Below are positions 48,580 through 51,729 of a stretch of 64,000 nt of DNA, in pieces. The DNA lies in assembly GCF_988243305.1 (NCBI RefSeq), contig NZ_OZ547136.1; one strand, written 5' to 3'. Within the stretch, counting starts at the first letter, position 1, and each line of letters opens with the position of its first letter. Below the pieces are notes generated by a model. It did not search any database and was not told the origin of the DNA. It worked only from the letters and a program-made list of their open reading frames with translations. The position numbers were made by a program, and so were the translations under genes.

Positions 48580-48592
48580 ATTAATATTATCC

Positions 48593-48629
48593 ATAAACCC
48601 ATAATTACAGGAAATGATTATGGGTTTAT
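48593..48629 (+). terminator. perfect 13-bp inverted repeat hairpin downstream of entF (candidate terminator)
   Basis: ataaacccataat-N11-attatgggtttat followed by catttatttgattt; starts 14 nt after the entF stop. Confidence 0.5.
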
Positions 48630-48794
48630 CATTTATTTGATTTATAAGTTTGGTGGATATTTCTCTTAAATAGAGTGAATGTTGCATTCAGTGGAAGGAA
48701 TTTACAAACTTCAGCTTCGGATAATTCTCACCAACTGGTAAAGTGAGCGCCGTGGAGATTTCCCCCTATTGGACTCATTTTCAGGTTATACCCC

Positions 48795-49928
48795 ATGTCA
48801 TCACTGAATATTAAACAGGGAAGTGACGCTCATTTTCCCGAGTATCCTCTGGCGTCGCCCAGTAATAATGAAATTGATTTACTTAATCTAATCGCAGTTT
48901 TATGGCGGGCCAAAAAAACGGTCATGGCGGTCATTTTTGCATTTGCCTGCGCAGGTTTACTGATCTCTTTCATCCTGCCGCAAAAATGGACCAGCGCGGC
49001 GGTTGTCACGCCTCCAGAACCTGTTCAGTGGCAAGAGCTGGAGAAAACATTCACTAAGCTTCGAGTGCTGGATCTGGATATCAAAATTGATCGTACAGAA
49101 GCATTTAACCTGTTTATCAAGAAGTTTCAGTCGGTTAGCTTGCTGGAAGAGTACCTGCGTTCATCACCTTATGTGATGGACCAATTAAAAGAGGCGAAAA
49201 TCGACGAACTGGATTTGCATCGCGCAATTGTCGCATTGAGCGAAAAAATGAAAGCGGTTGATGACAATGCCAGTAAGAAAAAAGATGAACCGTCACTTTA
49301 TACCTCCTGGACGCTAAGTTTTACCGCGCCAACCAATGAAGAGGCGCAAACCGTTTTGAGCGGGTATATCGATTATATCTCTGCTCTGGTGGTGAAAGAG
49401 TCGATAGAAAATGAGCGCAATAGACTGGAGCTTAAAACCCAGTTTGAAAAAGAAAAACTGGCTCAGGACCGCATTAAAATGAAAAATCAACTTGATGCAA
49501 ACATTCAGCGCCTCAATTATTCACTCGACATTGCCAACGCGGCAGGAATTAAAAAGCCCGTTTACAGTAATGGTCAGGCCGTTAAAGATGACCCCGATTT
49601 CTCTATTTCTCTCGGCGCAGACGGTATTGAACGCAAACTGGAAATTGAAAAAGCGGTTACTGACGTTGCGGAACTGAACGGTGAATTACGTAATCGTCAG
49701 TATCTTGTCGAGCAATTAACAAAAGCAAATATCAACGATGTGAATTTTACGCCGTTTAAATATCAGTTAAGCCCGTCATTGCCAGTGAAAAAAGACGGTC
49801 CGGGTAAGGCGATTATTGTGATCCTTTCTGCGATGGTCGGCGGGATGGTGGCTTGTGGTGGCGTGCTGTTGCGCTATGCGATGGCATCCAGAAAACAGGA
49901 TGCCGTGATGGAAGAGCACTTAGTTTAA
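48795..49928 (+). CDS. fepE: polysaccharide co-polymerase (Wzz-like) protein FepE, 377 aa
   Basis: N- and C-terminal TM segments flanking a coiled-coil periplasmic domain; position after entF. Confidence 0.9.
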   Translation: MSSLNIKQGSDAHFPEYPLASPSNNEIDLLNLIAVLWRAKKTVMAVIFAFACAGLLISFILPQKWTSAAVVTPPEPVQWQELEKTFTKLRVLDLDIKIDRTEAFNLFIKKFQSVSLLEEYLRSSPYVMDQLKEAKIDELDLHRAIVALSEKMKAVDDNASKKKDEPSLYTSWTLSFTAPTNEEAQTVLSGYIDYISALVVKESIENERNRLELKTQFEKEKLAQDRIKMKNQLDANIQRLNYSLDIANAAGIKKPVYSNGQAVKDDPDFSISLGADGIERKLEIEKAVTDVAELNGELRNRQYLVEQLTKANINDVNFTPFKYQLSPSLPVKKDGPGKAIIVILSAMVGGMVACGGVLLRYAMASRKQDAVMEEHLV

Positions 49929-50740
49929 ATCTTGGCAGTTGAAGGTGCCGTTCGTCCGAGCGGCACCACGAGCGGAGTTCCGGCTACCGGATCGTCAATA
50001 ATCATGCAGCGCAGACCATAAATGCGCTCGATCAATTCAGCAGTGACAATCTCCTTCGGCGCTCCCTGAGCAACAATTTTCCCTTCCCGCAATGCAATCA
50101 AATGGCTGGCGTAACGACAGGCCTGATTAAGATCGTGCAGCACCGCCGCCAGGGTATAGCCTTTCTCGCGGTTCAGTTCGCTTAACAGTTCCAGCAAATC
50201 AATCTGATGACTGATATCCAGCCAGGTCGTTGGTTCATCGAGCAGCATAATTGCCGTTTCCTGGGCCAGCACCATTGCTATCCACGCTCGCTGGCGTTGT
50301 CCGCCAGAAAGGGTATCCACGCTTTGATCCGCCAGATGGGTGATTCCCGTGGCCTGCATCGCTTTTGTGACGGCCTCTTCATCTTCTTTGCGCCAGCGGG
50401 TAAACAGCGGTTGATGCGGGTAACGCCCACGCGCCACCAGCTCCTGCACGGTGATATCTCCCGGCGTGGTGGCGTTTTGCGCCAACAGGCCAATCCGGCG
50501 TGCAACCTCTTTACTGGCGTAATGTTGAATGTGCTCACCATCCAGCCAGACATGCCCGTGAGCAGGCGTCATCAGGCGGCTTAAGGTACGCAGTAACGTG
50601 GATTTACCGCAGCCATTTGGCCCGATAATTGCCGTGAAGTGACCATCAGGTATTTCTACAGTCAGATTTTCTGCAACGGTATATTTGCCATATCCGAGGG
50701 TTAACTGTTCGCCGCGCAAACGGGCTACTGATTCGGTCAT
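49925..50740 (-). CDS. fepC: ferric enterobactin ABC transporter ATP-binding protein, 271 aa
   Basis: Walker A GPNGCGKST, ABC signature LSGGQRQR, Walker B LLDEPTT; start re-picked at MTESVARLRGEQ. Confidence 0.9.
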   Translation of the reverse strand: MTESVARLRGEQLTLGYGKYTVAENLTVEIPDGHFTAIIGPNGCGKSTLLRTLSRLMTPAHGHVWLDGEHIQHYASKEVARRIGLLAQNATTPGDITVQELVARGRYPHQPLFTRWRKEDEEAVTKAMQATGITHLADQSVDTLSGGQRQRAWIAMVLAQETAIMLLDEPTTWLDISHQIDLLELLSELNREKGYTLAAVLHDLNQACRYASHLIALREGKIVAQGAPKEIVTAELIERIYGLRCMIIDDPVAGTPLVVPLGRTAPSTAKI

Positions 50741-51729
50741 TTTTTGCGAGACTCCTGAATTAACAAGACGATAAGGTAAATACCACCGAGGCTGACGGTA
50801 ACGACGCCAACCGGAAGTTGATACGGCATAAACAGTTGTTGGGCGCATAGATCGGCCGCCAGCAGTAACAACGCCCCGCACAGCGCCGCCTGGGTCAGCC
50901 CCCAGCGAGCGGTGCCGCTAATGCGCCGGGCAATGTGTGGCGCGACTAAAGCAATAAAGGAAATCGGCCCGGCAAGCGCCGTTGCCGCAGCGGTGAGCAC
51001 CACTGCCACCAGCATCATTAACAGCCGCGAACGTTCGACGCTGACGCCCAACGCACACGCGGTATCATCGCCCATTTCCAGCAAGCGCATCCGGCGTACC
51101 AGTAAGGCGGCGGCAATGAGCATCAATATAATGATGGGCGCGGAAGGCGAGGTTTTTGCCCACGTCAGGCCGTTGAGCGATCCGGCATTCCACAAACCCG
51201 CTGTTAGCGCCGTTTCTAAAGACGCTTTCAGCAACAACCAGGTATTAAAGGCCACCAGCATGGCGCGAACACCGATACCGATAATAATCAACCGAAAGGT
51301 GTCGATACCGTTACGCCAGGCAAGCAGCCAGACCAGCAGCGAGGTGACAATGCCGCCCACCATTGCTGCCAGGGCGATAGCCGTCAGGTCCTGACCAAAC
51401 AGCACCATCGCCACCAGCACGCCGCTCCACGCCCCGGTGTTAAAGCCCATTACGTCAGGGCTGCCGAGCGGGTTACGCATCAGCGACTGAAAAATCGCGC
51501 CGCTGACGCCCAGAGCCGCGCCAATTAACAGCGCCATCAGCACGCGTGGTAAACGCCATTCGGTGACCACCATCGTCATACTGCGCGGCGCATCGCCCAT
51601 CAGCGCGGCGAATATCTGCGAGGTTTCCAGCGTGACGGCACCGCTGCGTAATCCCCAGATACCTGCAACCACACAGGCGGTAATTAGCAGCAAACAGGTG
51701 ATGATTAATCGGCGAGAGACGTAAATCAT
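50737..51729 (-). CDS. fepG: ferric enterobactin ABC transporter permease, 330 aa
   Basis: FecCD-family permease; 4-nt overlaps with fepC and fepD. Confidence 0.9.
   Translation of the reverse strand: MIYVSRRLIITCLLLITACVVAGIWGLRSGAVTLETSQIFAALMGDAPRSMTMVVTEWRLPRVLMALLIGAALGVSGAIFQSLMRNPLGSPDVMGFNTGAWSGVLVAMVLFGQDLTAIALAAMVGGIVTSLLVWLLAWRNGIDTFRLIIIGIGVRAMLVAFNTWLLLKASLETALTAGLWNAGSLNGLTWAKTSPSAPIIILMLIAAALLVRRMRLLEMGDDTACALGVSVERSRLLMMLVAVVLTAAATALAGPISFIALVAPHIARRISGTARWGLTQAALCGALLLLAADLCAQQLFMPYQLPVGVVTVSLGGIYLIVLLIQESRKK

Follow-up and report, generated by a model that had tools for sequence, protein, structure and literature searches.

A conserved hairpin between entF and fepE as a likely intrinsic terminator of the Escherichia coli fes-ybdZ-entF transcript

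The spacer between the enterobactin gene entF and the downstream gene fepE holds a perfect, AT-rich inverted repeat, raising the question of whether this palindrome ends the entF transcript, serves as a protein-binding site for the control of fepE, or has no present function. We addressed this question in a 64-kb window (the whole stretch of DNA analysed) and in related genomes. The window is E. coli DNA: its region 48480-48900 matches 5,410 of 5,426 complete E. coli genomes, in which the flanking genes are annotated as entF and wzz(fepE) in RefSeq, and the gene names used here were taken from the annotation of these near-identical genomes. K-12 has an identical gene layout, with a spacer of 215 bp. 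The coordinates of the features discussed below are collected in Table 1.

Table 1. Features of the entF-fepE region, in window coordinates
Feature	Position	Strand	Basis
entF CDS, 1293 aa	44698-48579	+	ORF list; annotated entF in 5,410 matching E. coli genomes and K-12
Whole hairpin: left arm 48593-48607, loop 48608-48614 (CAGGAAA), right arm 48615-48629	48593-48629	+	Sequence, fold, covariation
Core stem-loop of the candidate terminator, CCCAUAAUUA-CAGGAAA-UGAUUAUGGG	48598-48624	+	Sequence; 10-bp core alone folds at -9.5 kcal/mol
U-rich tract TTTATCATTTATTTGATTTAT	48625-48645	+	Sequence; K-12 counterpart TTTTTTATTTGTTTGATTTAT
Putative counterpart of H-NS footprint, TTTGGTGGATATT	48649-48661	.	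Positional alignment with O157 sequence; homology
RcsB-box-like motif TCGGATAATTCTCA, overlapping putative fepE -35	48717-48730	+	Likeness to Salmonella box
Putative fepE -10 TAAAGT (48739-48744) and TSS (~48751-48754)	48739-48753	+	Transfer of Salmonella SalCom TSS; conserved CTGGTA(A/G)A block
fepE / wzz(fepE) CDS, 377 aa, low-GC	48795-49928	+	ORF list; E. coli genome annotation, K-12

The inverted repeat downstream of entF

A first-pass annotation had pointed to a perfect 13-bp AT-rich inverted repeat in the entF-fepE spacer, and this was borne out: the repeat, ATAAACCCATAAT-N11-ATTATGGGTTTAT, has arms at 48593-48605 and 48617-48629 that are 100% complementary. It starts 14 nt past the entF stop codon and ends 166 nt ahead of the fepE ATG (48795), and when one U·G pair is allowed, the stem grows to 15 pairs with a 7-nt loop. 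No other perfect inverted repeat of 13 nt or longer (loop 3-20 nt) exists in the 64-kb window, where a mean of 0.02 is expected by chance (100 dinucleotide shuffles). Similarly, a pattern search for the palindrome gave one match in the window and none in 100 shuffles, and when the AT-rich spacer itself was shuffled, a perfect inverted repeat of 10 nt arose in only 135 of 20,000 shuffles (0.7%). The search for further copies that had been proposed with the first annotation likewise found a single-copy element, with one match in the window and a median of one place per E. coli genome (maximum two; 4,889 genomes, word-11 blastn).

An 86-nt region around the repeat folds at -21.1 kcal/mol (z = -2.66), and none of 200 shuffles folded as well. 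On the minus strand, the corresponding fold has a z of -1.75, is equalled by 13 of 200 shuffles and is followed by no T-run past the stem. The 15-pair stem with its 7-nt loop has an energy of -15.4 kcal/mol, or about -0.4 kcal/mol per nt. Rho-independent terminators typically have a G+C-rich stem of 5-14 bp and a loop of 3-8 nt; the stem studied here is AT-rich, with 3 G-C in 15 pairs, which is unusual for this class. All three G-C pairs lie at the base of the core stem, adjoining the U-tract, and the outer 5 pairs (AUAAA/UUUAU) are the usual complementarity between A-tract and U-tract and no separate feature. Directly 3' of the hairpin, the plus strand reads CATTTATTTGATTTAT, and a scan with a terminator consensus found a terminator-like site on this strand only, comprising a 15-pair stem, a loop of 7 nt and the tail CATTTATTTG.

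Conservation of pairing and the strand on which it acts

To follow the element among relatives, we scanned one genome per species for FepE, which yielded 75 loci, 22 of them with the entF C-terminus directly upstream. These 22 syntenic loci come from Escherichia, Salmonella, Citrobacter and Intestinirhabdus and, with four E. coli strains, make up a set of 26. A hairpin followed by a T-tract lies within 2-50 nt of the entF stop in 25 of the 26 loci, and conservation in related genomes, on which the first-pass annotation had made its reading depend, is therefore present; the exception is Citrobacter sp. MGH106 (L015), where the hairpin has decayed.

Across the syntenic loci, the bases of the stem differ while their pairing is preserved. 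E. coli has CCC/GGG, Escherichia sp. MOD1 has GCC/GGC, Escherichia sp. E1V33 has UCC/GGA and E. coli TO60 has ACC/GGU; the Citrobacter freundii group shows CUCC/GGAG and CCUC/GGGG, S. arizonae shows CCUC/GAGG and Intestinirhabdus shows CCCUUAAUAAU/AUUAUUAAGGG. In an alignment of 22 sequences, 94.2% of the helix cells are paired, a share that drops to 38-60% once the 3' side is shifted by 1-3 columns. Double-sided changes (CG, UA, AU, GC) occur at 7 of the 15 pairs, the observed covariation score was reached by none of 500 shuffles, and RNAalifold, unaided, predicts the same helix. Within the core, 100% of the pairs are kept, with CG exchanged for UA, AU or GC at alignment columns 16-18; the sequence of the core CCATAAT/ATTATGG is more conserved than pairing alone strictly requires.

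In the Citrobacter amalonaticus group (L018, L020, L024 and L075), the first ~60 nt after the entF stop instead hold a GC-rich hairpin of unrelated sequence, CCCCCGTAAC...GTTACGGGGG, with a T-run behind it. An unrelated hairpin and T-run at the same place suggests that the function was replaced without sequence homology and, together with the compensatory changes, shows ongoing selection. The region upstream of fepE has diverged in these four loci as well.

The alignment also distinguishes between selection on an RNA and selection on double-stranded DNA. Its 327 pair cells include 270 Watson-Crick pairs, 38 that are G·U when read on the plus strand and only two that are A·C, an A·C cell on the plus strand being a G·U on the minus strand. 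Pairing accordingly amounts to 94.2% as plus-strand RNA, 83.2% as minus-strand RNA and 82.6% as a symmetric DNA site. The excess of G·U over A·C cells indicates selection on the plus-strand RNA, not on a DNA palindrome, and selection on the pairing of this RNA is, like the hairpin, its tail and their position, shown here directly. The tail is itself asymmetric, with a mean of 8.6 T in the 12 positions 3' of the G-C core compared with 5.2 A in the 12 positions on the 5' side (22 sequences). A minus-strand or bidirectional terminator was rejected: the minus-strand fold is weaker, it lacks a T-rich sequence downstream, and its stem would contain A·C mismatches.

At the exceptional L015 locus, an ERIC-like palindromic insert (positions 1157-1330; core AAGTGACTGGGGT, forming a -27 kcal/mol hairpin) lies between the entF stop and the terminator position. 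The G-C pairs of the terminator have been lost there (GTTATTAATTT for GTTATGGAGTT), the T-run is still in place, and the terminator scan is negative.

Proposed termination after entF and competing readings

We propose, with a probability of roughly 85%, that the fes-ybdZ-entF transcript, which is Fur-regulated, ends at this palindrome as its Rho-independent (intrinsic) terminator. A terminator of entF was one of the two roles first suggested for the repeat, singly or together, and it is well supported by the plus-strand U-tail, the compensatory stem changes, the G·U wobbles, which only a plus-strand RNA could tolerate, and the replacement in the C. amalonaticus group. The properties of a terminator found at this site are a stable stem-loop, a U-rich tract 3' of it, a same-strand position soon after the stop codon, and compensatory changes. 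According to this model, once RNA polymerase has passed the entF stop, the nascent RNA would fold into a hairpin of 10-15 bp (CCCAUAAUUA/UGAUUAUGGG) whose three G-C pairs would abut the U-tract, the U-rich stretch would weaken the RNA-DNA hybrid, and the transcript would be released at ~48630-48640. Most fepE transcription would start ~125-160 nt downstream of the hairpin, at the gene's own promoter under H-NS and RcsB control. That transcripts actually end at the hairpin, and how efficiently they do so, we infer from these properties.

Like other intrinsic terminators of Enterobacteriaceae, the element consists of a stem-loop and a U-rich tract on the coding strand a few nt past a stop codon, with G-C pairs at the base, compensatory substitutions, and an A-tract that extends the stem against the U-tract. 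It differs from them in its long AT-rich stem (3 G-C in 15 pairs) with a 7-nt loop and, in the window, in an interrupted U-tract and a marginal predicted efficiency. The window allele reads UUUAUCAUUUAUUUG at this tract, compared with a much cleaner U-run, UUUUUUAUUUGUUUG, in K-12. A d'Aubenton-Carafa-type score, computed with Turner energies and only indicative, came out above zero for K-12 (+13.6), C. koseri (+12.5) and S. diarizonae (+2.5) alone and ranged from -22 to -52 for the window allele. Given the interrupted U-tract, termination may be partial or leaky in this strain.

Published expression data are in line with such a terminator. When an ExPEC strain is exposed to inactivated serum, fes, ybdZ and entF are induced and fepE is not, fepE responding instead to complement (PMC4145685); induction of entF but not of fepE is what a terminator between the two genes predicts. 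Several papers name a single fes-ybdZ-entF-fepE operon (PMC4145685 among them). This naming implies that the field assumes some read-through, and partial termination would fit it. As for mapped 3' ends, the Term-seq supplements of Adams 2021 contain no entry for the entF region, SMRT-Cappable-seq reads end before the end of entF and contain only a shorter fes-ybdZ product, and usable entF 3'-end data were found neither in the supplements of Conway 2014, Dar & Sorek 2018 and Yan 2018 nor in Thomason 2015. A full-text literature search that joined entF with terminator, Term-seq, RIL-seq or rho-independent returned nothing relevant.

A more elaborate role has an outside chance: the hairpin may be either a leaky terminator whose strength is set by the U-tract alleles and which couples fepE to iron starvation, or the end of an Hfq-bound sRNA derived from the 3' part of entF.

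The other role first suggested for the repeat, a protein-binding site controlling fepE, is not supported. According to this reading, the palindrome would be a double-stranded DNA operator for a dimeric regulator such as Fur, for H-NS nucleation or for another factor. In its favour, the repeat is perfectly palindromic, the spacer ahead of fepE is AT-rich, the core (CCATAAT/ATTATGG) is nearly invariant in many lineages, and H-NS binds the fepE upstream region in EHEC (PMC8669466). However, the half-sites CCATAAT and ATTATGG are separated by 4, 8, 10 or 11 nt depending on the species, a variation that an RNA loop can tolerate and a dimeric DNA-binding protein cannot, and the 38 G·T cells break the symmetry of the DNA (leaving only 82.6% Watson-Crick) yet keep the RNA paired. 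A Fur box was specifically rejected: the best match of the hairpin to the 19-bp consensus is 12/19, a background score also attained at 73 other window positions, whereas the true ent and fep boxes in the window score 15-16. What the hairpin shares with the Fur boxes and operators of the ent-fep genes is that it is an AT-rich palindrome inside the enterobactin cluster, and it differs from them in its 12/19 match, its variable half-site spacing and its symmetry-breaking G·T pairs. The H-NS footprint counterpart and the RcsB box both lie downstream of the hairpin, which is itself ~125-160 nt upstream of the putative fepE TSS and at a varying distance from the ATG, unlike the fixed promoter module, and the motif is missing upstream of 48 fepE homologues in other contexts. 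We therefore regard an operator as very unlikely.

It is also conceivable, if distinctly unlikely, that the hairpin is real and that its main role is not termination: it might protect the mRNA from 3' exonucleases or form the Hfq-binding end of an sRNA that stems from the 3' region of entF, the 3' ends being generated further downstream by Rho or by processing. Hairpins followed by U's are also a module of 3'-UTR-derived sRNAs, the AT-rich stem and the marginal terminator score of the window allele would suit such a role, and the entF-fepC spacers of other genomes hold GC-rich REP-like palindromes, a known type of mRNA stabiliser. However, the stem is directly followed in all lineages by a conserved U-tract, a feature specific to intrinsic termination; the Rfam search gave no matching family, literature linking entF to RIL-seq or sRNA data was not found, and a conserved upstream seed region finds no support here. 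Of the Rfam 15 hits, the best was NrrF on the minus strand (48593-48738), at 23.3 bits against a gathering threshold of 60 (E = 0.05), and all others were below 20 bits. We took the match to NrrF, a Fur-regulated sRNA of Neisseria, as a chance hit driven by the hairpin, as it comes with neither a minus-strand promoter nor a U-tail. A stabilising or sRNA role can in any case coexist with termination. Least probable of all is that the palindrome arose by chance or is left over from the fepE insertion (e.g., an old insertion boundary) and now has no function. The position at the left edge of a low-GC insert, and the absence of the hairpin after entF or before fepE in other gene contexts, would agree with a relic, but only 0.02 such repeats are expected by chance, the stem has undergone compensatory changes and replacement by a different terminator, and the element is retained in ~4,900 E. 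coli genomes.

Several narrower candidates were rejected alongside these. A dispersed repeat (REP, BIME or ERIC) was ruled out by the single-copy status in the window and in E. coli genomes. Such repeats are, like the entF hairpin, intergenic palindromes that follow stop codons, and they occur in the entF-fepC spacers of Klebsiella, Leclercia and a third assembly; unlike it, they are GC-rich, multicopy and devoid of a U-tract, whereas the entF hairpin is single-copy, AT-rich and followed by U's. A promoter-like site, ATTACA-17-TATCAT (48604-48632), was rejected as the fepE promoter: its -10 is replaced by TTTTTT in K-12, and 1.5 such sites are expected by chance. Finally, an antiterminator formed by the long-range UCCAU-GUGGAU pairing of the MFE fold was dismissed, this pairing not being kept among E. 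coli alleles.

fepE as a separate unit and allelic variation

Base composition suggests that fepE and the spacer form a horizontally acquired low-GC insert with the hairpin at its left edge: G+C is 53-63% in entF, ~35% in the spacer, 41-47% in fepE and 50-61% in the convergent fepC. The location at this edge accounts for the low G+C of the hairpin. At 49925-49928, the fepE stop region shares 4 nt with the end of the convergent fepC ORF (49925-50881, minus strand), an arrangement that leaves no space for a terminator belonging to fepE itself and places the right edge of the insert flush with fepC.

In four assemblies, including Klebsiella and Leclercia, no fepE follows entF, which converges directly on fepC. 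The AT-rich hairpin is absent from their entF-fepC spacers (three distinct sequences), which hold GC-rich REP-like palindromes instead. Conversely, 48 loci from other genera have a fepE homologue in a different gene context, and none of these non-syntenic homologues has the CCATAAT/ATTATGG core within 400 nt upstream. The hairpin thus travels with neither fepE nor entF and is specific to the entF-fepE junction. These observations, together with the low-GC character of the insert, fit the initial remark that the link of fepE to the enterobactin genes is positional only. As to the fepC-side palindromes, the spacer of Leclercia adecarboxylata (L088, 2320-2650) holds about six tandem GC-rich units of ~60 nt (…TTTTCACCCTCGCCCTTTGGGGAAGAGGGCACGGAGC…), L089 has one or two units related to these, and Klebsiella (L087, L090) carries a REP-like palindrome of another kind.

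A conserved RcsB box, a TSS mapped in Salmonella and an H-NS footprint suggest that fepE has its own promoter module, ~90-160 nt downstream of the hairpin. In EHEC, the H-NS DNase I footprint in the fepE promoter region is TTTGCTGGTTATT (PMC8669466), and E. coli fepE promoter fusions are active and are regulated by H-NS and SdiA (PMC8669466 among the sources). In Salmonella, RcsB-P binds and protects the fepE box TCGGATAATTCTGA at -79 from the ATG, and the SalCom TSS is located 43 nt upstream of the ATG and 36 nt past the start of the box (PMC7913699). Among 27 syntenic sequences, 23 carry an RcsB-box-like motif at -73 to -79. The promoter module keeps a fixed distance from the fepE ATG, and the distance between hairpin and ATG varies, with spacers of 211-344 nt.

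In K-12 MG1655 (L001 ~475-488, corresponding to window 48717-48730), the RcsB-like motif reads TCGGATAATTATCA, in which a C-to-A change breaks the TC(T/C) half of the box consensus; this half is intact in other E. coli alleles and in other genera. K-12 is O-antigen-negative, and the regulation of fepE may for this reason be relaxed in it. A further block, CTCTTAAATAGAGTGAATGTTGCATTCAGTGG (48663-48694), is conserved in most E. coli alleles; it includes a short palindrome (CTCT-N6-AGAG) and weakly resembles PmrA/BasR half-sites (CTTAAA…TGAATG).

If the hairpin is indeed a terminator, the 'fes-ybdZ-entF-fepE operon' would be two units, i.e., a Fur-regulated fes-ybdZ-entF transcript and a horizontally acquired fepE with an H-NS/RcsB promoter. 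Such a division would be useful in reading transcriptomes where fepE departs from the iron regulon, and in engineering the ent cluster or fepE (O-antigen chain length). Beyond annotation, the significance is small, and the element is most probably an ordinary terminator. The differences between U-tract alleles would, in addition, provide a small natural test set for terminator strength.

Within E. coli, the stem is preserved across alleles: a C-to-U change in the ST131-type allele gives U·G, TO60 has A-U in place of C-G, and the loop-proximal pair is U·G, U-A or G·U. Exact matches over 60 nt number 1,425 genomes for the K-12 type, 545 for the B2 type and 392 for the O157 type, and the exact allele of the window occurs in 0 of 5,426 genomes (best match 98.3%). 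The U-tract reads GGGUUUUUUAUUU in the K-12 type (1,425 genomes) and GGGUUUAUCAUUU in the window, B2 and O157 types.

E. coli TO60 (L002, 601-846) carries a strongly diverged entF-fepE spacer of 246 nt within an otherwise E. coli locus; its alignment with the 421-nt query covers only 46% of the query at 91% identity, and the hairpin (with A-U for C-G) and the RcsB-like box are retained. This spacer is probably a recombinant segment from another Escherichia lineage. Some other E. coli genomes match in the entF part only. In E. coli LR-58-1 (NZ_AP027553.1; L086, 85-122), foreign DNA starts right after the GGGTTTTTT of the terminator (GTGCACAGAAAACCCCCAGCTAGGCTGGGGGTTCCGG), and it looks like the end of an insertion element, with fepE displaced or disrupted.
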